A stretch of 21,002 nucleotides of DNA. Source: an uncultured virus (IMG/VR IMGVR_UViG_3300028591_000162) (lineage: Duplodnaviria; Heunggongvirae; Uroviricota; Caudoviricetes). The stretch lies in the IMG/VR virus record IMGVR_UViG_3300028591_000162. The stretch is one strand, 5' to 3'. Both the position numbers and the translations under genes were made by a program. The notes under the pieces were generated by a model. That model was not told where the DNA came from. It saw only the letters and a program-made list of their open reading frames with translations, and searched no databases. Positions 5,179 through 21,002 of this stretch are shown here, one piece after another (positions within the stretch are counted from its first letter, which is position 1; every line of letters begins with the position of its first letter).

Positions 5179-5184
5179 AGTCAA

Positions 5185-6345
5185 TTATCTTCTGCTTGGT
5201 GGGGTATTTTGGTTGTTGTTTCTTCGGCTTGGAGGTGTGTTGTCTTCGGTAGTGGTTACGCCACCGATGGCACGCAAAGCACTCTGCACGTTCGGGTCGT
5301 CGATGTTTGAACCAATCCAGTCCATCATTTGGTCGGCTGAAACAGGCGTTGTCTGTCCTGTTGAGATATTGTAACCTCCAGTCGGGCGACCTGCGGACGG
5401 TGTTTTGCTGAACACATACGAGATATTATGCTGGTTCAGTCGGGTGTTTGGAATACGAACCATACCATTGCCCGAATAGAACTCAGTATATTTGCCGTCC
5501 TGCGATGCAGCAATACGCTGACGTTCCAAGCCCTCTGATGCCTTATTGTGCCGTCTCGTTTCGGCAATACCAGCAGCTTGAAGTCCCTCGGATGCTCTGT
5601 TGTGGCGTTCATGCTCCTTGGAGGTGACATCAAACTGACGTTTGTTCTCGTCGAAACCTTTCTGCCAGTGGTCGTTGTCAGAGTCAAACTTCTTGTCGCG
5701 GAAAGCCACATCGTCGGCACGGTCTTTGCGACCTGCGTCAAACTGTTGTTGCCAGTTGTTCTGCTGTTGCTCTGCTTGTGTAACACGAAAGTTGAAGTCG
5801 CGGTCTTTGTCCTTGATGTTTCCAAGGGTGATAGCGTAGTTCACCAGTCTGTCATTGTCCTTGTCGCGCTGTGCCTTGGCTTTCTCAAACAGTTCTTTGG
5901 CTTTTGCCGACATCTTAGGCATATCCATAGCCTTGATGCCACGCGCATGAGAAAACGCCGTGTGGAATGTTCCCAAGCCCTCAGCGAGCCTTGCGAGGAA
6001 GCCTACACGTTTCTCGCGCTTCTCTCGTTTCTCTCGTTCCTCCTTTGTCTCGGGCTTGATACTCTCCATCTGACCACGAAGAAACTGCTCCAGTTCTTCG
6101 TAGTTGTTACCCTTGAACTGCGCATAGGGGCTTGTAGTGGTTGCCGTAGTAGTCGTTGTTGAGGACGATGAGCCTCCATTACCTACGAGTGTAGGTGTTG
6201 CAAGCGATGGAGGGGCAGGTGTGCCGTTTCCTCCATCGTCCTGTGTCGAGGTCACTCCGGGCTGTTGCCCATCATCATTCTGCGAGAAGTCGTAGAATGA
6301 CGTTGCACCTCGCGGTATTGTCGTTCCAAATGGGTTTGTTGCCAT
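5185..6345 (-). CDS. Putative DNA ejection / internal virion protein
   Basis: 386 aa; low-complexity S/T/G N-terminus, coiled-coil and Q/D-rich repeats, two ExxRxNxxxE motifs; lies between a pilot-like gene and the giant protein. Function inferred from synteny. Confidence 0.6.
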   Translation of the reverse strand: MATNPFGTTIPRGATSFYDFSQNDDGQQPGVTSTQDDGGNGTPAPPSLATPTLVGNGGSSSSTTTTTATTTSPYAQFKGNNYEELEQFLRGQMESIKPETKEEREKREKREKRVGFLARLAEGLGTFHTAFSHARGIKAMDMPKMSAKAKELFEKAKAQRDKDNDRLVNYAITLGNIKDKDRDFNFRVTQAEQQQNNWQQQFDAGRKDRADDVAFRDKKFDSDNDHWQKGFDENKRQFDVTSKEHERHNRASEGLQAAGIAETRRHNKASEGLERQRIAASQDGKYTEFYSGNGMVRIPNTRLNQHNISYVFSKTPSAGRPTGGYNISTGQTTPVSADQMMDWIGSNIDDPNVQSALRAIGGVTTTEDNTPPSRRNNNQNTPPSRR

Positions 6346-7356: not shown

Positions 7357-7386
7357 AAAACCGCTGGGCAATCGCTCGGCGGTTTT
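7357..7386. terminator. Bidirectional rho-independent terminator
   Basis: AAAA-CCGCTGGGC-AATC-GCTCGGCGG-TTTT: 9-bp stem with two G-U pairs, A/T tails on both sides, 30 nt after the stop at 7327. Confidence 0.75.
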
Positions 7387-7400
7387 GTTATGCTACAAAG

Positions 7401-7711
7401 ATAACTTAGTTATAACTAACTTATAACTCACTTATATATAATAATGTGTTAGTTACGACATGAGTTATAACTGACTGAAATTTGTAATCTCACAATTATT
7501 CTGAAACATGGCAAAAGAACTACGGAAACACCTAATTATTGTGCTTTTCGTTGGCTCTGAATATCAACAAGTTAATAACTCACTTATAACTCACTTACAC
7601 TTTTTGTATAACAAGTAAAGGAAAGTAAAGAAAAGTAAAAGAAAAGAAATATATAAAGAAAATAAATTTTCTTATTCTCGTCGTCGCCGCGCACGTACAC
7701 ACGCGCGTGTG
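7401..7711. repeat. Iteron-like 11-bp tandem repeats, purine-rich tract and palindrome (candidate replication origin)
   Basis: ATAACTTAGTT/ATAACTAACTT/ATAACTCACTT at 7401-7433; ATAACTCACTT x2 at 7575-7596; palindrome AGTTATAACT at 7408-7417 and 7463-7472; A/G-rich tract ~7613-7666; perfect palindrome CACACGCGCGTGTG at 7698-7711. Confidence 0.65.
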
Positions 7712-7761: not shown

Positions 7762-9243
7762 TTAGAAACCTTTGCCTTTCTGACGCTCATAGACGGCAAC
7801 CTTGCCGTTGTCGCAGTTGACAATCTTGAATTGGACTATTGAGCGAGGAGGAATGTCCGATGGCAGTCCTTTCACCAGTCGCGCAATCACTTCGTCGATG
7901 TTGGAGCAGCCGATGTCGTCGAAACTTGCCAAGCATTTGCCTTGAAAGAAAGCTGCTGCCTTGATGAGCATCTTCGGTGACAGACGGAACACGCTGCTTT
8001 CCTCCTCCTGCGCAGCCTGTTTGCTGGCTTGGTCAGAGAAGAAGATAAAATCAACAACACGCTCGTTCAGTTCCCATGCAGGTGTGAAGTCCAGTTTGAT
8101 GTATCCGCGAGTGATGCGGTGTCCTGCACTATGGTTCATGCCGAAAGCAACCTCAGATATGGACGCGCCGCAATCGTTCTGCGCCACCGTTCCCCATGTG
8201 TGACGGAAAGTATAGACGCAATACCAGTTCTCCTTTGCAATGCCCATGCTCTCACAAATCTTTCGGATGCCTATGTTCACGTTCGCGCTGAAACTGTCGC
8301 TGGTGGTGTGCCTGTCATGGAAGTTGAACTGCCATTCACTGCCTGGTACTGAAGCATACTTCTCAAACAACGGCTTGATTATCTCCGGCACACGCATTTC
8401 AAAGTATGCTCCATCAGAACGGCTGCGCATGGTCTTCGCACGCTTGTAGTGGATGATGCCACCGTGATAGTCCTCCCTGCGCAGGTTGTATAAATCGACC
8501 GTGTTGATGCCTCCAAGACACAATACCATCATGGCTACGTCTCGACCAAGTTCGGGCAACGGCAACTTCATCTTGCTTTCGGGCAGGGGAGAAGAAAAGA
8601 ACCTGCGGCACTCCTCCGCACTGATGGCTCGCTTCTCGGGACGGTCTGCATGTGGTATCTTCACCTTTACCCACGGATTGGTCTTCACTCTGATAAGCCC
8701 GGTGTCATAGTCGTTCAGTTCCTCGATGGCTGCGCGAAACACCTGCCTCATGCACACAGGGTACATTTCCTTTGCCCTGTTCGTCTTCTCCAAACTCTTT
8801 ATCCACTTCGCCACGTTCGTTGAGGTCAGTTGCGAGAACTTCACTTTGGTGGTGCCGAAGTAACGCTCCATGTGCTGGAGTGCCAACTCGTAGTTTTTAG
8901 CGTTCCTCGCCTGTCCGTTGTCGATGAGCCTGTCAATGTGCCGTCGCGCATAGTCAGAGAAGCACAAGTCTTCCTCACCCTTTTGTAGGTAGTCCACAAC
9001 CATTCGTGCAGTCCAGTTGCGAGTGTCCGTCTTGTTCAACTTCGCATTATAGTCAAGAATGAGCGCAGTGCAGAACTGCATCACTACAGGGTCGGTGATT
9101 TCCTTACTCCTTGACAGTTCTCGCTTAGTCACCATCTTGTCCGTCTTGATGTACTGTGTCGTGCGGTTGTGCGTCACTCTGATATAGACAGGAAAGAACC
9201 CGTCATTGCGCATCTTCTGCACACATGCTTTCAGTGTTGCCAT
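7762..9243 (-). CDS. int: Tyrosine integrase (Bacteroidetes type)
   Basis: N-terminal arm-binding motif (FPVYIRVTHNR), SAM-like middle domain, catalytic motifs GGINTVDL, YKRAKT, YTFRHTWGT, MNHS, ITRGY. Confidence 0.92.
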   Translation of the reverse strand: MATLKACVQKMRNDGFFPVYIRVTHNRTTQYIKTDKMVTKRELSRSKEITDPVVMQFCTALILDYNAKLNKTDTRNWTARMVVDYLQKGEEDLCFSDYARRHIDRLIDNGQARNAKNYELALQHMERYFGTTKVKFSQLTSTNVAKWIKSLEKTNRAKEMYPVCMRQVFRAAIEELNDYDTGLIRVKTNPWVKVKIPHADRPEKRAISAEECRRFFSSPLPESKMKLPLPELGRDVAMMVLCLGGINTVDLYNLRREDYHGGIIHYKRAKTMRSRSDGAYFEMRVPEIIKPLFEKYASVPGSEWQFNFHDRHTTSDSFSANVNIGIRKICESMGIAKENWYCVYTFRHTWGTVAQNDCGASISEVAFGMNHSAGHRITRGYIKLDFTPAWELNERVVDFIFFSDQASKQAAQEEESSVFRLSPKMLIKAAAFFQGKCLASFDDIGCSNIDEVIARLVKGLPSDIPPRSIVQFKIVNCDNGKVAVYERQKGKGF

Positions 9244-9307
9244 AATCTGTGTTCCTATCGTTTTTTGTTATACATCTGTATCTTGTTGTTATCTCGGTCA
9301 TTCTGAA

Positions 9308-9567
9308 CTCTAAACACGCTCTAAACATGGGGTCTGAAAACTCGCAACTTTCTCTAAACATTTCCGTTCATTCTGCTCATTTTCCGTGTCGGAATGAACG
9401 AACCTCCATTTACGAAGTTAGGCGGAAGTCCCTTTGTTTTCGGGGCTTACCGCCTAACTCGCTTAGTTTCAAGTTCCGTCGCTTATTCCTCAACGGCTGC
9501 CTGCGCGGCTCTTTTTGGAGCCTCAAAATAAGCGAGTTTGCGGTTTTCTCTAATCAATGTCTAACTC
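9308..9567. other. Putative attP region (arm-type repeats and inverted repeats)
   Basis: CTCTAAACA at 9308, 9319 and 9352; variant CTCTAATCA at 9548; several inverted repeats in between; directly 5' of int. Confidence 0.55.
9416..9459 (-). terminator. Long hairpin, possible terminator between the lysogeny operon and int
   Basis: AGTTAGGCGG (9416-9425) / CCGCCTAACT (9450-9459) perfect 10-bp stem, extended inward by AAGTCCC/GGGGCTT; the U-tract is weak. Confidence 0.5.
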
Positions 9568-9931
9568 ATTCGTTTTTCTCCGTCAGGTCGTAATACAACT
9601 GAACTGCTGCATCAGTAGAAAATGCCTCTGCCCATGTCTTGAAGTCGTATTCCAATCCGCTAACCTCATCGAGGTATGGACTTTCCCAAAGAGCTTCCAA
9701 TGAAGCGTAGGCTTCTGCTGGGTCTTTGCCGTATGCGTCCACCACTTCCGTTCCATATTGCTCAACGAGTATCTTTGCCCAGTCACTTTGCTCACAGCCG
9801 GGATTGAGACGCAACACTTCGAACGCTGCGGCTTTCAGTTCCTCCAGCGTATCATCCTGCTCGTTTGCCTCTGTTACGGCTTTCATCAGCATGGACAGTT
9901 TGCGAAATGCTATGTCTTCTTTACTGCTCAT
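9566..9931 (-). CDS. Hypothetical acidic protein (lysogeny operon cargo)
   Basis: 121 aa; 4-nt ATGA overlap with the upstream gene. Confidence 0.8.
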   Translation of the reverse strand: MSSKEDIAFRKLSMLMKAVTEANEQDDTLEELKAAAFEVLRLNPGCEQSDWAKILVEQYGTEVVDAYGKDPAEAYASLEALWESPYLDEVSGLEYDFKTWAEAFSTDAAVQLYYDLTEKNE

Positions 9932-10158
9932 GGTGCAACAGGTCTTCTTAACGTATATGGGTTTGCGGTCTTATAATGTCCTGCACTATCGGGAACAAGA
10001 AGTTCTTTAGTCCATGTATCCATGACCACTACACCGCCAATAGTTTTATATCTATGATTAAGCGCATTAAGGTACAGACCGCCAAAGAATGCTGCTAATA
10101 GCAACGCTATGACGATATATCGAAAAGGCTTAAATGTCTGTACACGTTCTTCGCTCAT
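9928..10158 (-). CDS. Small single-TM membrane protein (lysogeny operon cargo)
   Basis: 76 aa; hydrophobic helix YIVIALLLAAFFGGLYL; ATGA overlaps on both sides. Confidence 0.75.
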   Translation of the reverse strand: MSEERVQTFKPFRYIVIALLLAAFFGGLYLNALNHRYKTIGGVVVMDTWTKELLVPDSAGHYKTANPYTLRRPVAP

Positions 10159-10502
10159 CGTTCCATCAATATTTTTATTGTACGTTCCTTTTCCTCCAGC
10201 AACTTCTCCAACATAGCCACACGCTCTTGAAGTACAGCATTATTACTACCGGCAATGTTGTTATTGCCAGCAATAGATACACCACCGTGGTCTGATATTG
10301 TTACATTCGCTGGTTCAATCGGATAGAATAACGACATATCTTCACCCAATGCTTCTGCAATGCGTTCCAGCAAACTTGATTTAATGTCGGCAGCAGCAAG
10401 CATTTGGTTAAATGATTGCTGCGACACGCCAAGCAGTTTCGCTATCTGAGATTGCGAAACTTTCTTCTCATAGAGAATTTCTTTTAGCCTATTGCCTGTC
10501 AT
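10155..10502 (-). CDS. XRE-family HTH phage repressor (CI-like), no peptidase domain
   Basis: RLKEILYEKKVSQSQIAKLLGVSQQSFNQML HTH; C-terminal coiled coil; divergent from the early operon. Confidence 0.88.
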   Translation of the reverse strand: MTGNRLKEILYEKKVSQSQIAKLLGVSQQSFNQMLAAADIKSSLLERIAEALGEDMSLFYPIEPANVTISDHGGVSIAGNNNIAGSNNAVLQERVAMLEKLLEEKERTIKILMER

Positions 10503-10593: not shown

Positions 10594-10637
10594 TCGTGTT
10601 TAAGCCTCGTTGCTGTGCAACTGGCTTGTTTTCAAAC

Positions 10638-10671
10638 TGCAAAGGTAATCATTTTTAATTAAATAAACGAA
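10638..10671 (-). promoter_or_regulatory. Leftward (repressor/lysogenic) promoter
   Basis: -7 element TACCTTTG on minus at 10640-10647; TTCG (-33 variant) 20 nt upstream at 10668-10671. Confidence 0.65.
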
Positions 10672-10676
10672 AGAAA

Positions 10677-10901
10677 ATGGCAAAATCTGAATTTCGCGTC
10701 GTTCGAGAAACGCAAGTTAACACTCCCGAAAGCCTTTTGACGGTTGAAAAGGGAGAAACGGTAAGAGTATCGTGCAAGGACTTTTCGCCTTATAGCACGG
10801 TCAAGAGTGCAGCCACACGCCTTAACCAGCGTGCTGGCTGTGTTGAGTTTGAGATAACCACACCCGACAATGGTGCAACTATCATCATCAAAAGAAACTA
10901 A
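10677..10901 (+). CDS. Small first early gene (Cro-position, probable DNA-binding protein)
   Basis: 74 aa; A-rich leader; position opposite the repressor. Confidence 0.7.
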   Translation: MAKSEFRVVRETQVNTPESLLTVEKGETVRVSCKDFSPYSTVKSAATRLNQRAGCVEFEITTPDNGATIIIKRN

Positions 10902-10903
10902 TC

Positions 10904-11128
10904 ATGAAAGAATTGTTCACTCCATTCAGAAACTGGCGCGTTATCGTGCTTGCAGTGCTTGTGATGATCGCTGCCGTGTTCATTCTCGGCGACTGCGACG
11001 ACATGGGTTATCTACTGTTTACAAAGGGTGTTGGCTTCGGTCTCGCCTACATCATCTATCGTCTTGGCAAGTATTGGGATGCCAAGGGCAAAATCAATGA
11101 GTTAACAGCACTCGCAGAAGAAGAATAA
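10904..11128 (+). CDS. Small two-TM membrane protein
   Basis: 74 aa with two hydrophobic stretches; 2-nt gaps to both neighbours. Confidence 0.75.
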   Translation: MKELFTPFRNWRVIVLAVLVMIAAVFILGDCDDMGYLLFTKGVGFGLAYIIYRLGKYWDAKGKINELTALAEEE

Positions 11129-11130
11129 CC

Positions 11131-11406
11131 ATGAGTACCTATATCCAGTTTCCCGACAAGGTGGTGTCATACGACACGTTCATGGACGACCTTTCATCGC
11201 GCATAGTTCGCAAGATGCAGCGTGCGGAGGCAGACCCTAAGACGGTCAGCCAACGAAAGGCTTACTCCATCTTCGGACGTGCCAATGTTGACCGCTGGCG
11301 CAAGGAGGGACGCATACATCCTTGCAAGCGTCCGGGCAAAGTGGAGTATTGCATGGCAGACTTACGACTTCTTCAGCAGACGCAACAAGATTACTTCAAA
11401 CGCTAA
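11131..11406 (+). CDS. Excisionase-like / MerR-type HTH protein
   Basis: VSQRKAYSIFGRANVDRWRKEGRIHP...KVEY pattern resembles winged-helix Xis-like proteins; early operon position. Confidence 0.6.
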   Translation: MSTYIQFPDKVVSYDTFMDDLSSRIVRKMQRAEADPKTVSQRKAYSIFGRANVDRWRKEGRIHPCKRPGKVEYCMADLRLLQQTQQDYFKR

Positions 11407-11411
11407 CGAAT

Positions 11412-11660
11412 ATGGATTACGCAATTTACAAAACTACCGACGGCAAGCACCCTCGCGTTATTCACCGCTTCACACAGGAGGCTTGCAACCACAAGGCAAA
11501 GGCTGCTGCGCGTGAAAAACTAAATGATATGTGGCTCCGCGTCCTCCAGCGTCCGATGCTCCATCACAACCCCAAAGGTACAAAGGACGATTTCCAGTAC
11601 GACTACATGACGAGCGTCAACACTTCCGAGTGCATCCGCTTCTACATAGACAAATTATAA
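11412..11660 (+). CDS. Hypothetical protein
   Basis: ATG at 11412, just after the previous stop (MDYAIYKTTDG...); the ORF-track start at 11322 overlaps the previous gene. Confidence 0.7.
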   Translation: MDYAIYKTTDGKHPRVIHRFTQEACNHKAKAAAREKLNDMWLRVLQRPMLHHNPKGTKDDFQYDYMTSVNTSECIRFYIDKL

Positions 11661-11685
11661 GTTAAACCATTTAATAGTATCAATC

Positions 11686-12657
11686 ATGAGTCAAATCACT
11701 CTCACCGTCGAGCAGCTTAACGAAATGCAGCCCCTCGACATCGTAACGTCGCCTATCGTTCGCGACAAGTTCATCAACATCTATGATACCCTTTGGGGTA
11801 ATGGCACAGGCGAAGCAGCCTACGAGCGCGAAAGCAACTACTTCAACAAGTTGCTGCGCGATACACCCGACCTGCAAAAAGGCACTCACTTCTCTTTGTT
11901 TACAGCGTTTATCGACCTCGCAGTGTGTGGTCTATCGCTTGAACAAGGTACACGCGCCTTGTGCTACCTTATCGGACGCAACCAAAAGACAACTCCGAAA
12001 CTCGACCAGCAAGGCAGACCTTTGAAAGACCAAAAGGGCTACATCATCTACAACTGGGAGGGTCGCGTTGTTCTCACTATCTCTGCTTACGGCGAACTGG
12101 TGCTGCGCGAACGTGCTGGACAGATACGTCATGCCGACAACCCGGTACTGGTGTATGCCAACGACGAGTTTTCTTTCTCTGATAAGAATGGACGTAAGGA
12201 AGTGGAATATGTTTGCCACCTGCCTCACACTGGTCAGCGTATCGTGGCTTGCTACCTCCGTATCACTCGCGCTGATGGGAGCATCGACTACTCTGTCATG
12301 ACAGAAGAAGACTGGGTGCGCCTCGCTCAGTACAGCGCACGTCAGAACAAGAATGGCGGTGCCAATGCTCTCTATGGAGTTGACCAGCAAGGTGTGGTCA
12401 ACATTGACAGTGGTTTCCTCATGGCGAAGTGTATCAAACACGCTTTCAAGACTTATCCAAAAGTCCGTATTGGACGTGGTACTGAGTTGCAGAGCCAGCA
12501 GGTTGAGGAGAAAGAAATTGAAATCAACGACGATTTGTATGGTGTTAACACCGAGACTGGCGAGGTCATGCAGCCAGAGCCACAGCCGTTCGGACCTCCT
12601 GCCAACGACGTTTCTGCAGGTGTAACCGTAGATGCCGGTGATGATGATGGCTTCTAA
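11686..12657 (+). CDS. recT: RecT-family single-strand annealing recombinase
   Basis: SLFTAFIDLAVCGLSL, ISAYGELVL, VLVYANDEF, M(A)KCIKHAFK motifs; acidic tail ending DDDGF. Confidence 0.85.
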   Translation: MSQITLTVEQLNEMQPLDIVTSPIVRDKFINIYDTLWGNGTGEAAYERESNYFNKLLRDTPDLQKGTHFSLFTAFIDLAVCGLSLEQGTRALCYLIGRNQKTTPKLDQQGRPLKDQKGYIIYNWEGRVVLTISAYGELVLRERAGQIRHADNPVLVYANDEFSFSDKNGRKEVEYVCHLPHTGQRIVACYLRITRADGSIDYSVMTEEDWVRLAQYSARQNKNGGANALYGVDQQGVVNIDSGFLMAKCIKHAFKTYPKVRIGRGTELQSQQVEEKEIEINDDLYGVNTETGEVMQPEPQPFGPPANDVSAGVTVDAGDDDGF

Positions 12658-12808
12658 CGAGAGAAAAGAAAGCGCGTGCAAAGGATGTCCGCAAGCCTAT
12701 CGCGCAATCAACGGTCTCTTTTGCTCACGCTTACACAGATATGTAGAGTATTGCTTGGTTCAACCTTGCACAAACATTATTCAATCCACAAAACAGGTAT
12801 CATCATGA
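12647..12808 (+). CDS. Small Cys-rich protein (not in ORF track)
   Basis: MASNERKESACKGCPQAYRAINGLFCSRLHRYVEYCLVQPCTNIIQSTKQVSS; overlaps the recT stop and has an ATGA overlap with 12805 (alternative starts 12641/12644). Confidence 0.7.
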   Translation: MASNERKESACKGCPQAYRAINGLFCSRLHRYVEYCLVQPCTNIIQSTKQVSS

Positions 12809-14007
12809 CAACAGAAATAACAATTTTTGAACCGCAGAATGTAGGCACGATTGCAAAAGTCGCGCCACAGGCTTTCAAAGAGAACAGCGTTTCACACGAC
12901 CGCTGCCTCCAGTTCGGACAGGAACTGCTCAACCGCGTAAATACCGAGGGTATGTCCGACGAACTCGACCAAGAGATTGCAACATTCATTGAACGTGCGA
13001 AGAAGACATTGAAGAAGATGAACGGCAAACGCTCTGCCGTTACCCAACTCTTTGACAACATCCGTTCGGTCTATACAAAACTGGAAAACGAGGTTGACCC
13101 TGCAAAGAAAGGAACGGTTGCAGCACAGTTGCAGGAACACCGAAACAAATACGCTGCCAAGAAACGTGAGGAATACGAGGCAGAGCAGCGCAGAAAGCAG
13201 TTGGAACAGGCTAAGGTGATGGCAAAGAACAAGTATGCTACCGATGTCGAAGACGACCTCCTGCGCCAGTTCAATGCGCTTGTTGCTTCTACGTGTAACC
13301 GTCTTATCGAACTTGACAAGTCTCTGACACTTGAAAATTATGCCATCGTTTACGATGGAGTGAAAAACACCAGCGACCAACTTTCACAGGACTGGTTCAA
13401 TGCGCTTCGTCCCGAAGTGCTGATGCCCTCAGTTCTCTCGCCCGAAGACGCGCGTGCCATCGCTGCCGAAGTGAAGCAGAAGATACAGCAGCGTTTCAAG
13501 GAACAATTCACTTTTGAGATTTCCACCAACCGCGACGACATTCTTGACCGTCTGCCATCCAAGCGCAAGGAATTGGAGCGCATTGCCAAAGCCAACAAGG
13601 AGGAGGCAGAGCGTATCAAGAAACAGATGGAGGAGCGCGAGCGCAAGGAAGCCGAACAGCGAGAGAAAGAACGTGTCGAACGTGAGGCAAAGGAGAAAGC
13701 TGCTGCCGAACTCGCTGCACAGAAGCAGGAAATGGACGGTCTCTTTGGTGCCGCTGAAATACAGGTCAACCAGTATCAGCCGAAAACATCAGTCAAAAAA
13801 CGCCTCAACGTACTAAACTCTGAGGGCTTCATGCAGGTAGTTGGTATGTGGTGGGCGCAACACGGCTGCACACTCTCTGTTGCTGAACTTGAAAAGATTT
13901 TCTCAAAGCAACTGACATACTGCAACAAACTGGCTAACGACAAAGAGCACCCAATCTTTATCCAGTCTGAACATATTGAATACGTGGACGATGTAAAAGC
14001 AAAGTAA
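12805..14007 (+). CDS. Coiled-coil hypothetical phage protein
   Basis: 400 aa from MTTEITIF; long E/K/R-rich coiled coils; sits in the recombination module. Confidence 0.8.
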   Translation: MTTEITIFEPQNVGTIAKVAPQAFKENSVSHDRCLQFGQELLNRVNTEGMSDELDQEIATFIERAKKTLKKMNGKRSAVTQLFDNIRSVYTKLENEVDPAKKGTVAAQLQEHRNKYAAKKREEYEAEQRRKQLEQAKVMAKNKYATDVEDDLLRQFNALVASTCNRLIELDKSLTLENYAIVYDGVKNTSDQLSQDWFNALRPEVLMPSVLSPEDARAIAAEVKQKIQQRFKEQFTFEISTNRDDILDRLPSKRKELERIAKANKEEAERIKKQMEERERKEAEQREKERVEREAKEKAAAELAAQKQEMDGLFGAAEIQVNQYQPKTSVKKRLNVLNSEGFMQVVGMWWAQHGCTLSVAELEKIFSKQLTYCNKLANDKEHPIFIQSEHIEYVDDVKAK

Positions 14008-14009
14008 CT

Positions 14010-14405
14010 ATGTACGAAAGCGGATATTACCCAGCAGGTGCGGAGCATGACCCAAACGCTCCGTGGAACCAGTCAGACCCCGAACCAGTATCGCAGGACA
14101 TCGAGTATTCTTGCACCATGCGTCGCACTGCAACCGTCGAGACTACCAACTATGTGCCTGGTACATGGGAAAAAGACGAGGACGGCTTTGGCTATCGTGA
14201 CGGTGATGATTTCTCCGATACCGATTGGCTGTCCGACTTCAAAGATACCTATCGTACACCGAAAGAACTCATTGACCTGCTCAAAGAAACAGCCAAAGAA
14301 CTTGCCAATGGCAAGATGCCTAACAAGCCAAAATCGTTTTGGAAAGACGTAATGGCTGACTGCGAAAACTGGAGTATTGACGATGAAGAAACAGAAATGC
14401 TTTGA
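14010..14405 (+). CDS. Hypothetical acidic protein
   Basis: 131 aa, begins MYESGYYPAGAEHDPNAPWNQ; tightly packed in the operon. Confidence 0.8.
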   Translation: MYESGYYPAGAEHDPNAPWNQSDPEPVSQDIEYSCTMRRTATVETTNYVPGTWEKDEDGFGYRDGDDFSDTDWLSDFKDTYRTPKELIDLLKETAKELANGKMPNKPKSFWKDVMADCENWSIDDEETEML

Positions 14406-14407
14406 TT

Positions 14408-15070
14408 ATGATGAATATCCAAGATATAAACTACTACGAGCGAAGTGAGGTCAGCAACTCTGACCTCACCGAACTCAAAAACCTGCTCCATCCGCGTCCG
14501 CAGTTTGGCGATAAGGAAGCAGCGTTCCGCTTCGGCTCTCTTGTCGATGCCATCATCACAGAACCCGACCGCGTGAACTACTACCAGTTCACCGTTGACG
14601 ATGTTCAGTACACGGAAGACGAGTTCCGACACGCGCAGGAAATGTACCGCTCTTTGCGTCGGGAGGCTCGCAATGATGCTTTTCTTGCAAAGGTGCTGGA
14701 GATTGCGGACACGCAACGCTGTATGGTAAATAAGCAACAGCAATTCGAGTATGGTGGGTTTGTTTTCACTCTCGACACTCGCTGCAAGTGGGATTGGTTC
14801 CTTGACCTTTTCGGCTTTGGTGGCGACCTCAAAACGACTTTCGCTTCTACGCAGAAAGAATTTGACGAGGCTGTGGACTTCTTCGACTGGGACAGGAGCC
14901 GTGCATGGTACATGGATATAGCACACTCCGACCGTGATTTTATCTACGGCATCAGCAAAAAGAACTGCTGCGTGTTCAAGAAGTTCATCAACCGTGGCGA
15001 CGCTATTTACAACCGTGGACGTGAGAAATATGAAGAACTGGCTTTCCAGTATTGGTGCTTAAACTTATAG
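14408..15070 (+). CDS. PD-(D/E)XK exonuclease, RecE/ExoVIII-like (DUF3799-type)
   Basis: VSNSDL, FRFGSLVDA, RCKWD...GGDLKTT motifs; same operon as RecT. Confidence 0.75.
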   Translation: MMNIQDINYYERSEVSNSDLTELKNLLHPRPQFGDKEAAFRFGSLVDAIITEPDRVNYYQFTVDDVQYTEDEFRHAQEMYRSLRREARNDAFLAKVLEIADTQRCMVNKQQQFEYGGFVFTLDTRCKWDWFLDLFGFGGDLKTTFASTQKEFDEAVDFFDWDRSRAWYMDIAHSDRDFIYGISKKNCCVFKKFINRGDAIYNRGREKYEELAFQYWCLNL

Positions 15071-15074
15071 TCAG

Positions 15075-16502
15075 ATGGAACTGAAACACAATCTTAAAAT
15101 AGAACCATACCCATACCAGCGTGAGGGTATCATCTTCGGGCTTGACAAACACAGGCTGCTCATCGGTGATGAACCGGGACTTGGTAAGACACTCCAGTCC
15201 ATCGGCATTGTCGATACGGCTAACGCCTACCCTGCGCTCGTTATCTGTCCGTCCTCTCTTAAAATCAACTGGCAGCGTGAGTTTGAGAAGTTCACAAACA
15301 AGAAAGCACTTGTACTTGACAACGCTACACGCACGGCATGGCCGTATTTCCTGCAAATGGGTATGTTCCATGTTGCCATTGTCAATTATGAGAGCCTACG
15401 CAAGTATTTCGTTTGGGACATTAATTCTTCAGACCGTCGTTCTTTCCGTCTCAAAGATGTTGTATTCAATGATGCCATCAAGGTTTTTCGCTCGGTTATC
15501 ATTGACGAAAGCCACCGTGTCAAAGACCCAAGCGCACAGCAGACAATCTTCACACGGGGCATTGTTGAGGGCAAGGACTTTCGTATTCTCCTTTCGGGTA
15601 CGCCTGTGGTAAATCGAGCAGAAGACTTGGTTTCCCAACTCTCCATCATGGGCAGGTTACAGGAGTTTGGAGGTCGTGGCAAGTTTCTCGCTGACTATGG
15701 GGAGAATGACAACCTTGAAGAACTGTCACAGCAACTCTACCGCCGCTGCATGATACGACGTGAAAAGGCAAAGGTGCTGACGCAACTGCCCGACAAGACA
15801 CGCACAGACCTCTATGTGGAAATATCCAATCGTGAGGAATACGAACTTGCAGCAGAAGACCTTGCCGAGTACCTGCGTCAATATAAGGAGTGCTCCGATT
15901 GGGAGATACGTCGCAAGATGCGCATGGAGGCTCTTGTCAAGTTCATGACACTGCGCTCGCTCTCTGCCAAGGGTAAGGTAAAGCAAGCCATTGACTTTGT
16001 TCGCGTTTTCCTTGCATCCGGCAAACCACTCATCCTGTTCTGCTCACTCCATGAGATTGTAGATGAACTGTGCAAGGCTTTTCCTGATGCTGTACGCGTA
16101 ACAGGGCGCGATAATGCCACATCGAAGCAACAAGCCGTTGACAGTTTTCAAAACGGATATAGCCAGTTGATTATCTGCTCAATCAAGGCTGCTGGTGTTG
16201 GACTGACGCTGACGGCATCGTCAAACGTGGCTTTCGTAGAATTTCCTTGGACTTATGCCGACTGCTGCCAGTGCGAAGACAGAGCGCACCGTATTGGACA
16301 AAAAGATAACGTGACGTGTTACTACCTCATCGGTCGCCATACCATCGACCGTGCGCTCTACGACATCATCCACAAGAAAAAGTCCATTGCTAACCAAATC
16401 ATGGCTGCTGACGATGAGATACCTACCGACGAAATGTATTTCAACGAACTGGCTTCTATGATACTCAACCCAGACAATGACGATGGAGATATGCAAGACT
16501 GA
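15075..16502 (+). CDS. SNF2-family helicase/ATPase
   Basis: GDEPGLGKT (I), IIDESH (II), LSGTP (III), AAGVGLTL (V), QCEDRAHRIGQ (VI). Confidence 0.92.
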   Translation: MELKHNLKIEPYPYQREGIIFGLDKHRLLIGDEPGLGKTLQSIGIVDTANAYPALVICPSSLKINWQREFEKFTNKKALVLDNATRTAWPYFLQMGMFHVAIVNYESLRKYFVWDINSSDRRSFRLKDVVFNDAIKVFRSVIIDESHRVKDPSAQQTIFTRGIVEGKDFRILLSGTPVVNRAEDLVSQLSIMGRLQEFGGRGKFLADYGENDNLEELSQQLYRRCMIRREKAKVLTQLPDKTRTDLYVEISNREEYELAAEDLAEYLRQYKECSDWEIRRKMRMEALVKFMTLRSLSAKGKVKQAIDFVRVFLASGKPLILFCSLHEIVDELCKAFPDAVRVTGRDNATSKQQAVDSFQNGYSQLIICSIKAAGVGLTLTASSNVAFVEFPWTYADCCQCEDRAHRIGQKDNVTCYYLIGRHTIDRALYDIIHKKKSIANQIMAADDEIPTDEMYFNELASMILNPDNDDGDMQD

Positions 16503-16656
16503 CATCAAAGCAATCATCGGTTTTCTCGATGATGCGGCAACGCTCGTAGATGAGGAATGCCAACGGCGAAGCCAGCAGAAACGCGGCTACCTGCTGATGC
16601 TCAACAAGGCAAGGCTCATGCGACTAATGAAACAGAAACTTGAACGTAAATTATAA
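16483..16656 (+). CDS. Small hypothetical protein (not in ORF track)
   Basis: MEICKTDIKAIIGFLDDAATLVDEECQRRSQQKRGYLLMLNKARLMRLMKQKLERKL; fills the gap between the helicase and HU. Confidence 0.65.
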   Translation: MEICKTDIKAIIGFLDDAATLVDEECQRRSQQKRGYLLMLNKARLMRLMKQKLERKL

Positions 16657-16675
16657 ACTCTAAAAATTTGAAGTT

Positions 16676-16975
16676 ATGACAAGAAAAGAAATCGCAAAGG
16701 AACTGGCAAATCGTTCCAACCTCACCCCGTCACAGGCTACTCACGCCGTAGAGGGTATCATTGAAATTATTGAAGACGCACTCGCCAAGGATGAACCAAT
16801 CTTGTTGCGTGGCTTCGGCACAATCAAGACAGTGCAGCGTGCAGCCAAGCCAGCACGAAACATCAGCAAAGGCACAACGATGATGCTGCCACCTACCAAG
16901 CAAGTGAAATTCATCGCCTACAACGAACTTAAAGAACGTATCAACCATCATGGACGTTACGCAATTCTTCCGTAA
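16676..16975 (+). CDS. HU/IHF-family DNA-binding protein
   Basis: MTRKEIAKELA...LRGFGTI...ARNISKGTTM...VKF pattern. Confidence 0.9.
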   Translation: MTRKEIAKELANRSNLTPSQATHAVEGIIEIIEDALAKDEPILLRGFGTIKTVQRAAKPARNISKGTTMMLPPTKQVKFIAYNELKERINHHGRYAILP

Positions 16976-17300
16976 GGGAAACAACAAGTACCATGCGCAG
17001 AAATCGGGTGGCTATGCCTCGCGCAAGGAACACAGACGCGCCAACGAATTGCGACTGATGCAACGAGCAGGGCTTATCTCCAATCTGCGTGAACAGGTTT
17101 CCTACGAACTCATACCGGCACAACGAGGTGCCGATGGCAAAGTGCTTGAACGTGCCTGTAACTACATCGCTGATTTTGTCTATACCGACAAGGACGGAAA
17201 GACGGTGGTCGAGGACACAAAGGGAATGAGAACTGATGTGTACCGCATCAAGCGGAAACTCATGTTGCATGTTCACGGCATAAGAATTTCAGAACGATAA
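16950..17300 (+). CDS. DUF1064-family PD-(D/E)XK nuclease (putative resolvase)
   Basis: NKYHA...ASRKE...LREQVSYELIP...YIADFVY...VVEDTKGMRTDVYRIKRKLM. Confidence 0.85.
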   Translation: MDVTQFFRKGNNKYHAQKSGGYASRKEHRRANELRLMQRAGLISNLREQVSYELIPAQRGADGKVLERACNYIADFVYTDKDGKTVVEDTKGMRTDVYRIKRKLMLHVHGIRISER

Positions 17301-17312
17301 AAACTTGACGAT

Positions 17313-18071
17313 ATGGCTACGCGGCAAATAAAATCAACAAATTATTTCTCCCACGATAGTAATGCACGCAACGATGAGAAACTGGTGCGACTGCGCATGA
17401 AGCAAGGGGCAGCAGGGTATGGCGTGTATTTCATGATACTGGAGCGGTTGAGGGAGGAAGCCGACTACATGAGTGCCAAAGATTATAACATGATAGCCTT
17501 TGACCTTCGTGTGGATGCTGCCATTGTCAAGTCAGTTGTTGAGGACTTCGGGCTATTTACCTTTACCGATGATGGTAAGTGTTTCTATTCGGAAAGTTTC
17601 ACTCGACGTATGGACATCAAGGACACACTGCGCCGTCAGCGTTCCGAGGGTGGTAAGATTGGTATGAAAAATCGTTGGAAAAAAGAACAGGGGAAACAGG
17701 ACAAAGAAGTTAAGCCACAACCGAAAGCGGCTTCTGCGCCAACGACACAACCAGCCGACAACCAAACCTGTCTCAAACGCTTCTTTGGCAAAGAGAACGC
17801 CAGTAACCTTGAAGTGTTGCTAATGAACTTCGGACTGAAACCCGACGACATTACAATGATACGCAAGGTAGCAAAGGAGGTTGTCGCTGAATGGGAGATT
17901 TCCAAGAAAGAACATACCGACTACACCGACTGGTCTCAACATCTTATCGCCACAATGCGCATTAAGGTTAAAGACAAGCAACAGGCAAAGGGTAAGACCG
18001 CCACGGAAACAGTTCCGCCATCAACTGCCGACTATCAGTATGACGGTGGCTTTGGAAGCAAAGATGTATAA
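17313..18071 (+). CDS. DUF4373 (Lin1244-like) phage replication initiator
   Basis: YFSHDSNARNDEKLVRLRMKQGAAGYGVYFMILERL N-terminal domain; immediately upstream of a DnaC-like ATPase. Confidence 0.8.
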   Translation: MATRQIKSTNYFSHDSNARNDEKLVRLRMKQGAAGYGVYFMILERLREEADYMSAKDYNMIAFDLRVDAAIVKSVVEDFGLFTFTDDGKCFYSESFTRRMDIKDTLRRQRSEGGKIGMKNRWKKEQGKQDKEVKPQPKAASAPTTQPADNQTCLKRFFGKENASNLEVLLMNFGLKPDDITMIRKVAKEVVAEWEISKKEHTDYTDWSQHLIATMRIKVKDKQQAKGKTATETVPPSTADYQYDGGFGSKDV

Positions 18072-18082
18072 CTCTCACAACT

Positions 18083-18883
18083 ATGACAATGGAAGAACAG
18101 AAACAACTGACAGAGGAACAAAAGCGTGAGGCACAACAGAAAGCGGCTCTCGCACGGATGCACATCAGCACACTCAACCAATGCGTGGAACGTGCATGGA
18201 AAAAGATGCAGCAGGAAAAAGAGAAGTCACAAGACCTTTCCATCAAGGAAGTGTTTGACGCTCATGCCAAAACGCTAATGTGGGTGGCAAACAACGTAGT
18301 GTTGGCTCACCAGCGACGCAAGTTCGTGGTCGATGATAACAACCGGGACGTGCTGCGCTTCTTGCTCTACTACTTCAACGGCTGTCCGCTCGCTGAAGAT
18401 GTGTTCCCCGGACGTGGCTATAAACTGCACAAGCATATCATGTTGCAAGGGGCTGTCGGAACTGGTAAGACATTGCTCATGCAAGTATTTTCGGAGTACC
18501 TGCACATTACAGACAACCCTCGTTTCTTCCATAACCTTTCCGTAACGCAGATGGTGAACTACTACACGCTGCACAACAACCTCGACCGCTACACTTTCAA
18601 TGAGGAGGAAAACAAGGGGTTCAAGTGTGAACCGGTAAACATCTGCCTCAACGACATCGGCGTACAATCTACCAAGTTCTACGGCACGGACACCGAAACA
18701 CTCACTAACGAGTTTCTTCATGCTCGCAACGAGATTTGGACGCAATACCACAAAATGGCACATCTTACAACCAACCTCACTAACGAGCAACTGAAACAGA
18801 AGTACAGGGATGGCTTCGGGCGACTGCTCGACCGCTTCAAGACCTACAACATTATCCCACTCACAGGGGATAGCCGGAGATAA
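18083..18883 (+). CDS. DnaC/IstB-like P-loop ATPase (helicase loader)
   Basis: Walker A GAVGTGKT, Walker B-like ICLNDIG, HLTTNL, RLLDR, GDSRR. Confidence 0.82.
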   Translation: MTMEEQKQLTEEQKREAQQKAALARMHISTLNQCVERAWKKMQQEKEKSQDLSIKEVFDAHAKTLMWVANNVVLAHQRRKFVVDDNNRDVLRFLLYYFNGCPLAEDVFPGRGYKLHKHIMLQGAVGTGKTLLMQVFSEYLHITDNPRFFHNLSVTQMVNYYTLHNNLDRYTFNEEENKGFKCEPVNICLNDIGVQSTKFYGTDTETLTNEFLHARNEIWTQYHKMAHLTTNLTNEQLKQKYRDGFGRLLDRFKTYNIIPLTGDSRR

Positions 18884-18917
18884 TTCACTTATTATTCACC
18901 AATAAAATCAAAACAGT

Positions 18918-19178
18918 ATGACAAAAGATTTCATTCCCGAACTCCAACCGCTGTTCTGCTCTCGCGCTTCACTGCTGCAAGCACAGGACAAGTTGACGAA
19001 CAATCCCGACATGGATTGTCAAATGCGCCTACGTTTCGCAGATGGCTCGGAAGTCGCGCTCAAAATCAAGCGTGCCGACATTGAGAACATCATCACGGAA
19101 CACATCGGCACTATTGAAACCAGCATACACAAAACGCTGGACGAGATTGTAACAGAAGAAACAAACCAAAACCAGTAA
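18918..19178 (+). CDS. Hypothetical protein
   Basis: 86-aa ORF with A-rich leader, in operon. Confidence 0.7.
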   Translation: MTKDFIPELQPLFCSRASLLQAQDKLTNNPDMDCQMRLRFADGSEVALKIKRADIENIITEHIGTIETSIHKTLDEIVTEETNQNQ

Positions 19179-19181
19179 GTC

Positions 19182-19619
19182 ATGAACAGTTATTTTGAAG
19201 TCGGAGTCCGCTACGACAAGACAATGGAAGACGGTGTTATCCGCAAGGTAACAGAGAACTACCTTTTGGATGCTCTCTCTTTCACAGAAGCGGAAAAGCG
19301 TGCCACTGAGGAAATGGAAGCCTACATCAGCGGAGAGTTCAGAGTGGTAACAGAGAAAATTACCAACATCGCAGAGGTGGTTACTACGACCGATACGTCT
19401 GCCGACAAGTTTTACAAGGTCAAGCACAGCCTCATCACCATTGACGAGAAGACCGCCAAAGAGAAGAAGCAAGCGCAGTATATCATCATTCAAGCATCAA
19501 GTGTTGATGATGCACGCGACCGCTACAAACAGCACATCAAAGGATGGCTCGTTGACGTGGTACTGGAGGCTGTCAGCGAAACAAAGTACATGGATTATTT
19601 CCCTTATAACAACAATTAA
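19182..19619 (+). CDS. DUF4494-family protein
   Basis: YFEVGVRYDKTMEDG...KVTENYLLDALSFTEAE...IDEKTAKEKK...ETKYMDYF pattern. Confidence 0.85.
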   Translation: MNSYFEVGVRYDKTMEDGVIRKVTENYLLDALSFTEAEKRATEEMEAYISGEFRVVTEKITNIAEVVTTTDTSADKFYKVKHSLITIDEKTAKEKKQAQYIIIQASSVDDARDRYKQHIKGWLVDVVLEAVSETKYMDYFPYNNN

Positions 19620-19632
19620 AAATCAAAAGACA

Positions 19633-20085
19633 ATGAAAACAAATTTCTTTGAGAGAAATGGTATCGCAGTGTTTTACGCTCTGCAAGTGTTGTTCATCCT
19701 GCTCGCCATCGCCGAGGCTTATTGCCACCGTTGGCTGGGCGTCGTCTCTAACCTCGTCATGGTTCTCGCTATTGCCGTGTTCATCACTCACGTTCGTATG
19801 AGCATCAGGCGCAAAGGTACTATCTCTATGTTGATGGACTTGGTGGTACTGATTGCCCATAGTAAGGTGCAGGAGCAAGAGAATAAGGAAGACAAGCAGT
19901 CAACCGAGGAAGAAGTTGCTGCAAAGCAACAGATGCTTGACAGCCTTGTCGGTCTCACCATTGTGAAGACAGGTCACTGCGACACTTGCCCGAATGAGAA
20001 GTCCGACTGCAAGAAACTTATCCTTGCCGACGGCTCGCACATCTGCGTGAAAGACATGACTAAACAACCCTCTAAAGCACAGTAA
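19633..20085 (+). CDS. Membrane protein with Cys/His-rich C-terminus
   Basis: Start at MKTNFF (19633); two TM helices; C-terminal HCDTC...C...HIC. Confidence 0.7.
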   Translation: MKTNFFERNGIAVFYALQVLFILLAIAEAYCHRWLGVVSNLVMVLAIAVFITHVRMSIRRKGTISMLMDLVVLIAHSKVQEQENKEDKQSTEEEVAAKQQMLDSLVGLTIVKTGHCDTCPNEKSDCKKLILADGSHICVKDMTKQPSKAQ

Positions 20086-20087
20086 CC

Positions 20088-20723
20088 ATGAGTAAAGAAA
20101 TAACTATCCCTGTTCCCGACGGCAAACGTGCCGAGTGGATTAACGGTGTTCTTACACTCGTTGACGAGCAGAAAGTAGAAAACCGTCCTGTAACAGAACG
20201 TATCAAGACGCTTGATGATGCCTGCAATGCGCTGGGCGATGAGCATCCGCTTGTCACACAATACCGTCTTACCGCTGCCGCATATAAAGGCGACCCCATG
20301 ACGGAAGATTTCATTGCTTACCTCAAACTCCGTATCATCGTTGCTGCCCTCAATGAGGGCTGGGAACCGAAGTTCACAGAAGATGAGTATAGATACTTCC
20401 CTTGGTTCTACTTCTATACCAAAGAGGAGTACGACAAGTTAGACGACGAGGAAAAAGGGCGTTGTGTTCTTCGCTCCGGCGGCGGCACGAACTCGAGCAG
20501 CGGCTTCGTGAACTGCTACGCGAATAACGTTGCTTCGAACTCGAACACCAACGACGGCTCGCGGCTTGCCTTCAGAACTCGTGAACTCGCAGCCTACGCA
20601 GGTAGGCAATTCATCGAGGAATGGGCTGACTTTATGTTTAAGCCTCGCACTGGCGAGGAGTTAAACGGAAAGTCAGAAGCAGGGAAAACCACCATCGACT
20701 TCAACAACAAAGAAGATGAATAA
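20088..20723 (+). CDS. DGR target-type protein (C-type-lectin-like variable region)
   Basis: 211 aa, no signal peptide; RCVLRSG...GSRLAF motif enclosing an Asn/Ser/Gly-rich segment. Confidence 0.8.
   Translation: MSKEITIPVPDGKRAEWINGVLTLVDEQKVENRPVTERIKTLDDACNALGDEHPLVTQYRLTAAAYKGDPMTEDFIAYLKLRIIVAALNEGWEPKFTEDEYRYFPWFYFYTKEEYDKLDDEEKGRCVLRSGGGTNSSSGFVNCYANNVASNSNTNDGSRLAFRTRELAAYAGRQFIEEWADFMFKPRTGEELNGKSEAGKTTIDFNNKEDE
20457..20573 (+). repeat. Putative DGR variable repeat (VR)
   Basis: 39 consecutive codons with none ending in A; 7 AAY codons plus AAC-derivable GGC/AGC/TAC/GAC; ends in GGCTCGCGGCTTGCC. Confidence 0.72.
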
Positions 20724-20913
20724 CGGACGCTTACAATTCTTCAACCTTGTAAAGGCTATGCGTGAGGCGCAAAGGGAATACTTCTCTACGCGCTCTCACG
20801 AAGCCTTACAAAAGGCTCGCTCACTTGAACGTAGTGTTGATGCCTACATCAAGCGTGGCGACGATTACCTTAAAAAACAAAATCAAGAACCAACTTTATT
20901 CGATAATGACTGA
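20716..20913 (+). CDS. Small hypothetical protein
   Basis: 65 aa (FFNLVKAMREAQREYFSTRS...LERSVD); overlaps both neighbours. Confidence 0.75.
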   Translation: MNNGRLQFFNLVKAMREAQREYFSTRSHEALQKARSLERSVDAYIKRGDDYLKKQNQEPTLFDND

Positions 20914-21002
20914 TAATATTAAACTCCTATATATAGACCTGTTCTGTGGGGCTGGCGGCACCAGTACAGGTGTTGAAAAGGCAACCTTTCACGGTGATAA
21001 GT
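20906..21002 (+). CDS. C5 DNA cytosine methyltransferase (5' fragment)
   Basis: MTDNIKLLYIDLFCGAGGTSTG: SAM-binding motif I (DLFxGxGG); truncated by the window edge. Confidence 0.85.
   Translation, partial: MTDNIKLLYIDLFCGAGGTSTGVEKATFHGDK

Follow-up and report, generated by a model that had tools for sequence, protein, structure and literature searches.

Nearly all that is understood of phage DGRs comes from receptor-binding tail proteins, and the locus described here raises the question of whether such an element may also rewrite a non-structural protein encoded among early genes. In the stretch of phage DNA that we analysed (21,002 nucleotides, hereafter the window), an earlier note, made from the letters alone, had pointed to a remote DGR variable repeat (VR) near the right end. 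We asked whether this repeat is genuine, where its template (TR) and reverse transcriptase (RT) reside and what the diversified protein may do for the phage.

A variable repeat near the right end of the window

The gene under study and the elements within it are the following.

20088-20723, + strand: target gene, an open reading frame of 211 aa with translation, phrog_11581 family
20457-20567, + strand: variable repeat VR2 of 111 nt, which encodes residues 124-160 and is co-linear with the TR found in related phages
20568-20576, + strand: nine bases GCCTTCAGA, common to VR1 and VR2; the bases after the TR are ACCAGCAAGA
20592-20607, + strand: small inverted repeat with a 6-bp stem and a 4-nt loop, 16 nt past the IMH-like bases

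The letters of 20457-20573 are as the earlier note had quoted them and lie in frame with the 211-aa reading frame. None of the 39 codons of this stretch ends in A; the remaining 172 codons of the gene include 40 that do, a rate that would give such a result with P about 3e-5. Seven codons of the stretch are AAY, and both features had been reported in the note. The A fraction of the stretch is 0.17 against 0.31 in the rest of the gene, and its G+C content 0.62 against 0.47. The VR is not placed at the extreme C-terminus of the protein: it is followed by 49 residues, with predicted helices at 165-198, that are conserved family-wide. A repeat search and short-word blastn found no TR in the 21-kb window, and it contains no RT, as the first reading had also stated.

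The small inverted repeat downstream was tried as a target-recognition hairpin. The 85-nt stretch folds no better than its shuffles (z -0.31) and the stem is imperfect in 2 of 11 relatives; it is a weak candidate for this role.

Genomic context of the target gene

The target gene closes a long series of co-directional genes, and the window contains no structural genes.

7762-10502, - strand: lysogeny module, divergent from the early operon
7762-9243, - strand: tyrosine-type integrase, phrog_1
10155-10502, - strand: repressor-like regulator, phrog_3/8
10677-20085, + strand: co-directional early operon upstream of the target gene, identified by PHROG matches
20716-20913, + strand: 65-aa open reading frame, phrog_15937, whose start overlaps the stop of the target gene
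20906-21002, + strand: start of a C-5 cytosine DNA methyltransferase, phrog_116, which runs past the window end

Products of the early operon include RecT-like, exonuclease VIII, helicase, DNA-binding, Holliday-junction resolvase, replication initiator and DnaC-like loader proteins, together with small open reading frames without assigned function, three of which precede the target gene. The integrase and the repressor-like gene indicate that the phage is temperate. The full homologue of the methyltransferase, in the nearest record (G001), is 561 aa long and matches PF00145 with an E-value of 4.6e-29. On the + strand, the promoter and terminator scan detected no terminator-like site from 10621 to 21002, and its counts were those expected of shuffled sequence; a sigma-70 consensus probably does not suit the host of this phage. 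Six RNA runs contain 20-42% of the sampled words of 17000-21002, which is no evidence of expression. From the gene order we infer that the target gene is expressed early.

Neighbours of the family gene were counted over 80 sources (79 IMG/VR loci and the window), in 77 of which the family gene was recognised.

Replication initiator / replisome organiser: 35 of 80 sources
DnaC-like loader: 35 of 80
DNA-binding protein phrog_379: 24 of 80
phrog_19572, without assigned function: 20 of 80
Helicase: 15 of 80
Metal-dependent hydrolase: 14 of 80
SbcC-like protein: 12 of 80
RecE-like exonuclease: 12 of 80
RecT-like protein: 12 of 80
Methyltransferase: 6 of 80

Over the 77 loci these neighbours are nearly all on the same strand as the family gene; resolvases are also common among them and structural genes are not. 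Adjacency to a methyltransferase was rejected as the defining context, being too narrow: a methyltransferase cluster is present in only 6 of the 80 sources, the initiator and the loader in 35 each. The proposal of a remote, non-structural target in an early gene agrees with these data: the gene stands at the end of a replication and recombination operon, and the cassette lies about 13 kb away in relatives.

Template, reverse transcriptase and VR1 in related phages

A pattern made of the invariant bases of the VR was run on IMG/VR contigs and retrieved 14 loci on 11 contigs. Five of the matched copies are TRs, with AAC at each variable codon and a distinct 3' flank. A TR of the sequence that the earlier note had predicted therefore exists in related phage contigs, beside an RT. 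In three contigs (G007, G008 and one further), 12.8-13.2 kb separate the TR from the target-gene homologue, and the two are on opposite strands. The TR comes some 320 nt downstream from a further variable repeat (VR1) and immediately upstream of a 447-aa RT. VR1 lies at the C-terminal end of a protein of at least 2040 aa that matches phrog_14959/5302, annotated 'tail'; in G007 only about 7 residues follow the repeat. Similarity between the VR1 protein and the target protein covers only 40 residues, those of the VR, and ends at the VR borders. Judged from sequence, the variable loop is a shared module carried by unrelated scaffolds.

The G007 RT is a single 447-aa open reading frame that reaches 32.5 bits for RVT_1 (cut-off 29.6) and matches phrog_1423 with an E-value of 1.8e-90; its translation carries YCDD and GLRSSQ, and GxxxSQ marks DGR-type RTs. 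The G008 RT is also above the RVT_1 cut-off, while NCBIfam gave only generic RT matches, below its cut-offs. Avd was not detected among the eight open reading frames of the G007-type cassette (Pfam only, bAvd); Avd is not universal among DGRs.

The bases that follow the repeats differ between donor and recipients. In the related contigs GCCTTCAGA is exact after all three VR1 and after 9 of 11 VR2, the other two VR2 being one base off within the first two positions, and ACCAGCAAGA follows the TR in all five TR copies. By analogy with known elements, this pair of motifs sits where the IMH/IMH* distinction that marks the VR as recipient is expected, and it may play that role.

Differences between template and variable repeats fall on adenines

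The 29 adenines of the 111-nt TR occupy the first codon position in 15 cases and the second in 14, and never the third. The reference for the window VR was the TR consensus of four related contigs, not the own TR of the window genome; against it, 9 of 29 A sites differ and none of the 82 non-A sites (Fisher 2e-6). Over 13 distinct VRs (10 VR2 and 3 VR1, one duplicate VR2 being left out) we counted 200 differences at A sites and 14 at non-A sites, with Fisher values for the other VRs ranging from 1e-6 to 3e-13. When VRs were compared with the TR of their own genome, three VR2 and three VR1 each displayed 13-18 differences at A sites and none elsewhere. In addition, C-to-T and A-to-T changes peculiar to the TRs of G007 and G008 recur in both VRs of those genomes, as expected if both VRs were copied from that TR. 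The existence of the TR, the adenine specificity of the differences and the hypervariable VR codons described below confirm that the stretch carries the footprint of a DGR variable repeat, as had been proposed.

Hypervariability is confined to the repeat in a large protein family

Among clusters built at 90% identity, 5586 match the target protein with E ≤ 1e-3; in a whole-library search at 50% identity, 1485 clusters had E ≤ 1e-3 and 645 had E ≤ 1e-10. Variability was measured in an alignment of 103 of the best 120 relatives, those of differing length being left out, which are 85-94% identical to the window protein. Entropy exceeds 1 bit at 17 of the 211 columns and 15 of these lie in the VR. 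The 13 VR columns that correspond to Asn codons reach 2.5-3.2 bits; each of them holds 9-12 residue types, for the most part Y, S, N, F, V, G, D and H. Two more VR columns, T134 and T154, are at about 1.3 bits; their codons, ACG and ACC, begin with a TR adenine. Elsewhere in the protein, 1 bit is exceeded at residues 43 and 176 alone (1.2-1.4). In these 103 proteins high variability falls on 15 VR codon positions that contain TR adenines.

The same pattern of fixed small residues alternating with variable positions recurs in the 79 IMG/VR loci (44-90% identity), where the loop is bounded by conserved R-x-V and G-S/V-R-L-A-F motifs. Longer forms of the protein are rare: only six were found, two of which have an N-terminal Lcl_C (PF07603) lectin-like domain just under the Pfam cut-off, a weak lead to function.

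We also examined a distant set of five complete records, whose family proteins share 47-57% identity with that of the window. Every record has an RT above the Pfam cut-off with a TR and a VR1 beside it, and the mismatches between TR and family-gene VR fall on TR adenines in 14/14, 12/13, 15/15, 13/13 and 12/12 cases. VR1 is located near the end of a phrog_14959 or phrog_5302 tail-type protein, and the family gene is about 8.5-48 kb from the RT. A TR shared by the tail-type protein and the family gene was found in three close relatives, in LoVEphage and in all five distant records; it is absent from three complete close relatives in which the cognate cassette is swapped or gone (G002, G003 and G004). 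Its presence in the five distant lineages indicates that the pairing of tail-type and early-gene targets is old and conserved. The opposition drawn in the earlier note, a target in an early gene 'rather than a tail fibre', holds for the early gene and fails for the tail, as the same TR serves a tail-type protein too in every lineage checked.

The target protein and its predicted structure

The target protein matches phrog_11581, a family without known function, over residues 28-186 (PHROG profile search, E 5e-51). It is acidic, with a net charge of about -11, and has no hydrophobic segment (top Kyte-Doolittle 19-residue score of 1.06). The absence of a signal peptide cannot set it apart from virion proteins, since these are also made in the cytoplasm; the intracellular role, perhaps against host defence proteins, that the earlier note had suggested is a conjecture. 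Searches of Pfam, NCBIfam and PADLOC gave no match, either to a defence or anti-defence family or to any other, and a Pfam search of 91 family members matched no family. The best hit of a PDB profile search had an E-value of only 0.058, and the ESM Atlas search returned unnamed viral clusters only. The tail-associated profiles phrog_5302 and phrog_14959 match the protein at residues 120-165 only.

AlphaFold2 run on 91 diverse sequences gave a model with pLDDT 80.8 and pTM 0.71, in which an N-terminal beta-hairpin and helices at 42-88 and 165-198 are predicted and the VR loop 130-154 is below pLDDT 50. A model built from 103 near-identical sequences had a pLDDT of 48 and was discarded. Foldseek found no match in the PDB at E ≤ 1e-3, VIA-align over 48,161 chains gave nothing informative (best Z 4.8), and BFVD returned uncharacterised phage proteins only, four of them at E ≤ 1e-3. 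The C-type lectin (CLec) fold that the earlier note had associated with such regions found no confirmation in these comparisons, which assigned the protein to no fold.

A probable cognate DGR in the window phage

By analogy with the three related contigs, the window phage would have its cognate cassette on the opposite strand, some 12.8-13.2 kb rightwards of VR2. The close relatives do not all carry it. With G001, the nearest record, the window shares 97.3% identity over 19.6 kb, and repeat search and short-word blastn found no cognate TR in that record; G002, which is complete and has an RT 100% identical to that of G001, has no cognate TR either. The cassette of these two phages is a different one, with a sub-threshold Avd (29.3 bits against a cut-off of 40 in Pfam, 29.7 against 80 in NCBIfam), a TR' that consists of runs of AAC, an RT' of 509 aa and a VR' carried by a 260-aa protein. 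G003 holds another RT and another repeat pair of 114 nt, and the genome of G004, which is complete and has terminal repeats, lacks both RT and TR. The DGR cassette is a swappable module among otherwise syntenic phages. VR2 is identical in G001 and G002, and in G004 it is intact and diversified, which means that VR2 can persist as an orphan.

The window VR differs from the VR2 of G001 at about 20 sites, of the A type, while the rest of the target gene is almost identical except for one mosaic patch; such a contrast implies that diversification is more recent than the divergence of the flanks. The right end of the window is 93.2% identical to the TR-bearing G008 as against 90.1% to G001.

Metagenome contigs of several runs were then compared with the cassette locus of G007. 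This evidence consists of contigs, not raw reads, and includes no physical link between TR and VR2; run X1 is the probable source sample and as such is not independent. In X1, a 5607-nt contig (depth 16.7) extends across the lysis genes and the RT and reaches into the TR; it shows 70 differences over 2150 nt, and its RT is about 97% identical to that of G007. A 354-nt contig covers the remaining TR and the spacer. A 30.7-kb contig (depth 17.6) begins in VR1 and continues through the tail-type gene; the contig bearing VR2 has a depth of 16.4. The X1 TR reads AACACC and AACAAC: the window VR also has AACACC, and its AGCAGC departs from AACAAC at adenines only. The cassette is also covered in X2, X4 and X9 (bovine and pig gut), and one X4 contig joins RT, TR, VR1 and the tail-type gene. 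At the level of the sample, these contigs support, but do not prove, the presence of a cognate DGR in the window phage, and current DGR activity in its genome is likely, though not proven.

Comparison with known systems

The DGR of the Bordetella phage BPP-1 acts on a single adjacent target, the CLec-fold tail-fibre tip protein Mtd, which carries the VR at its extreme C-terminus; the element also includes Avd. The system described here resembles it in the flow from TR to VR, in the A-specific changes, in the AAY design with adenines at positions 1 and 2, and in the recipient-specific 3' boundary. It differs in that the related contigs have two targets 13 kb apart on opposite strands, in that no Avd was detected in the cognate cassette, and in that VR2 is followed by 49 residues of conserved helices. 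In tentaclin DGRs one element also diversifies two proteins, and the role of dual mutagenesis is called unclear in the passages concerned (PMC10743442). As described there, however, the tentaclin targets are receptor-binding proteins within the cassette, whereas the second target of the window lineage is an early-operon protein far from it.

The closest counterpart is the distal target of Quimbyvirus and LoVEphage (Benler et al. 2021, PMC8008677), which the earlier note had invoked, through the proposed Quimbyviridae, as the precedent for non-structural DGR targets. The precedent proves to be a homologue: tblastn of deposited phages found relatives of the target protein in Bacteroides and Phocaeicola phages, among them BT-TP2 (52% identity), PV4-TP1 and BI-TP1 (about 41%) and LoVEphage itself. 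In LoVEphage (MW660583.1) the coding sequence 33613-34197, 194 aa and annotated 'hypothetical', is 39% identical to the target protein (E 1e-28); two repeats on the other strand, at a distance of 15.5 kb, match its VR, and it sits among methyltransferases and an RtcB ligase. The papers on Quimbyvirus and on LoVEphage each give about 95% identity to the same B. dorei prophage. The two systems have in common a VR at the same place in the distal target, far from the RT and on the strand opposite to the TR, a paired VR1 in a structural-module protein beside the RT, a methyltransferase nearby, and a temperate phage of Bacteroidota-type hosts. One close homologue of the target protein was also found in a Prevotellaceae MAG.

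The window lineage is nevertheless distinct. Its genomes are 62-66 kb long and come from ruminant and pig gut, its TR has another sequence, and the window phage has no nucleotide match to LoVEphage. Its RT is one 447-aa open reading frame in G007, as opposed to the three overlapping frames described for Quimbyvirus (PMC8008677). The window gene closes an operon of RecT, helicase and replication-initiator genes, whereas the LoVEphage gene is found in an island of methyltransferase and tRNA ligase genes. The same architecture has been described in four prophage species, whose second VR is remote from the RT and has counter-defence genes, for instance a methyltransferase, in its vicinity (Nature 2025, PMC12629997). 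These phages are human-gut isolates, in contrast to the ruminant and pig gut lineage of the window. BT-TP2, PV4-TP1 and BI-TP1, which have homologues of the target protein, belong to that collection, and LoVEphage-type lysogens of Bacteroides and Phocaeicola have been isolated (PMC12629997).

The class to which the target family belongs is thus already published for Quimbyvirus/LoVEphage (Benler 2021; Nature 2025), at least as these papers' passages present it. Its function was left for investigation in the passages on the distal target (PMC8008677), and the main text of the later study offers no family definition, structure or function for the second target (PMC12629997). Our literature search, confined to main texts, found no functional study of the PHROG 11581-type target family. 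What we add to the published passages is that the family is large, that it resides in replication modules and that tail and early targeting are paired in five of five distant lineages.

Discussion

We consider it very probable that 20457-20567 is a second, remote variable repeat (VR2) of a phage DGR and that its product most likely acts early as a ligand binder of variable specificity. On this model, the cassette would open with a giant tail-type protein that has VR1 at its end, followed by the TR and by a 447-aa RT of DGR type. TR RNA would be reverse-transcribed with random misincorporation opposite adenines, and the cDNA would replace VR1 or VR2, both marked by the same nine bases after the repeat. 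In this way 13 AAC and one AAT Asn codons would be recoded, together with single ACG, ACC and GAT codons. The loop so altered, of 37 residues (TR translation GRCVLRSGNNTNSNNGFVNCNANNDASNSNTNNGSRL), would be displayed on a conserved helical scaffold from the early operon. The retrohoming mechanism itself is well supported. Judging from genomic context, the target protein is most likely a ligand binder acting early in the conflict or compatibility between phage and host.

Other explanations have to be weighed against this one. That the stretch is Asn-rich and A-poor by chance, without any retroelement, would account for nothing more than the absence of a TR from the window; it is vanishingly improbable given the exact TR in relatives and the Fisher values obtained for the window and the other VRs, and it is refuted by a hypervariability that is confined to the predicted codons. 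A more serious alternative concerns the state of the element: the window phage may have swapped or lost its cognate DGR, so that the VR would be a fossil, the frozen product of past diversification. The foreign avd-TR'-RT' cassette of G001 and G002, with its unrelated repeat, the other repeat pair of G003, the bare genome of G004 and the identity of VR2 between G001 and G002 all show how this could come about. The probable source run, however, holds the cognate RT, TR and VR1 at the depth of the VR2 contig, the window VR has changed at adenines while the gene around it has hardly diverged from that of G001, mosaic patch aside, and the right end of the window is nearer to a TR-bearing phage; loss of the element is accordingly quite unlikely.

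The role of the protein is a separate matter. It might be a second receptor-binding or adhesin-type protein, associated with the virion or released at lysis, that happens to be encoded in the early region. This protein and the tail-type protein have exactly the same 37-residue loop, virion proteins lack signal peptides as well, the homologue in phage Versailles is annotated 'tail protein', and the rare longer forms have the lectin-like Lcl_C domain at their N-terminus, just below the Pfam cut-off. Yet the common neighbours in 77 loci are replication and recombination genes, not structural ones, the likeness to the tail protein stops at the VR borders, and the 'tail' label probably derives from the VR alone, the only part that the two tail-type profiles recognise. 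We therefore regard a virion role as unlikely and retain an early-acting ligand binder as the preferred reading of the target protein.

A broader scheme can be offered tentatively, with little confidence that it will hold as a whole. One TR would maintain the 37-residue binding loop on two unrelated scaffolds, the tip of a tail-type protein and a cytoplasmic early protein whose gene directly follows those of the replication initiator and helicase loader, and would so broaden host range at two stages, when the phage adsorbs and once it has entered. The cytoplasmic protein would be a re-programmable binder whose partner, a host factor or a defence protein, differs from strain to strain. Where the cassette has been lost or swapped, the orphan VR2, its recipient boundary being preserved, could still be rewritten in trans by the TR and RT of a co-resident relative.

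Up to now, as far as the published passages tell, a second, non-structural target was known from Quimbyvirus/LoVEphage and a few gut prophages, with neither family definition nor function. The window places this target family in another phage lineage, one of ruminant and pig gut. Remote targets were, by its authors' account, beyond the detection of one survey (Roux et al. 2021, PMC8144416); surveys that score only RT-proximal targets miss a whole class of DGR targets. The benefit that antibody-like variability brings to an early phage protein could be tested in cultivable LoVEphage lysogens.

DGR cassettes of the relatives and the TR 3' flank

Phages that are otherwise syntenic carried three differing DGR cassettes, or none, and in each of the related records G002, G003 and G004 the VR2 of the early gene was intact and present as an orphan. 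The reverse transcriptase of the G002 cassette is a 509-aa protein and the match to its Avd was sub-threshold. No RT was found in the whole record of G004.

Repeats and cassettes of G002 (locus L032) and G003 (locus L033)
L032 4025-6900: DGR cassette of G002, with candidate Avd, TR', RT and VR'
5274-5394: TR' of G002, AAC runs on the minus strand
6116-6239: VR' of G002, within a 260-aa protein
L033 6273-7176: repeat pair of G003, 114 nt, differing from the others

A stem-loop of about 10 pairs lies 8 nt past the end of TR in L016, the cassette locus of another relative, and its sequence was the same in all five TR copies. The 91-nt stretch just 3' of TR (L016 5850-5940, minus strand) folded with a z-score of -1.81 relative to shuffled sequences. 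Work on BPP-1 places the DGR RNA spacer element, which primes cDNA synthesis, just 3' of TR. By its position, the stem-loop lies where such an element would be expected.

Diversity of the target gene and its family

When contigs of one bovine-gut run (X9) were aligned to L016 at 6261, three separate contigs ended with the 3' flank that is specific to VR2. A single sample may thus hold several variants of VR2, although contigs cannot tell strains from ongoing diversification.

The target gene is near-identical to that of G001 except over some 60 nt (window about 20260-20320, encoding residues about 58-76), which could not be aligned and differed in length by 9 nt. The differences were not adenine-specific, and family members in general show little conservation here; the patch looks like mosaic recombination.

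Longer family members are rare. Two of them (P0276 and P0277, 399-402 aa) carry a lectin-like Lcl_C domain (PF07603) N-terminal to the family domain, scoring just under the Pfam cut-off (34.3 versus 34.9 bits). A homologue with 33% identity in Bacteroides phage Versailles (ON453897.1, 10319-10726) is labelled 'tail protein', a label that may derive only from the likeness of its VR loop to those of tail proteins.

Other features of the window and a hybrid repeat copy

1-5184, minus strand: very large ORF, >1728 aa, continuing beyond the left end of the window
7385-7614: direct-repeat cluster with inverted arms, in a non-coding stretch to the left of the integrase gene

The large ORF gave weak matches alone, to PHROGs with no assigned function (phrog_5143, phrog_2299), and is distinct from the VR1-bearing protein of the relatives (2040-2351 aa). 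The cluster comprises 11-nt and 23-nt direct repeats, with an ATAACT-type unit present five times, and inverted arms of 40 nt; it possibly represents attP arm sites or another array of binding sites.

One contig of 8,974 bp (IMGVR_UViG_3300026549_000532; L007/L050) ends in a hybrid repeat copy, in which an unmutated TR body and TR's own 3' flank follow the 5' portion of the early gene. Either the assembly produced a chimera at the repeat, or the copy is a recombination product of the inverted VR2 and TR copies. If it arose by recombination between VR2 and TR, the 13-kb segment between the copies would be inverted.
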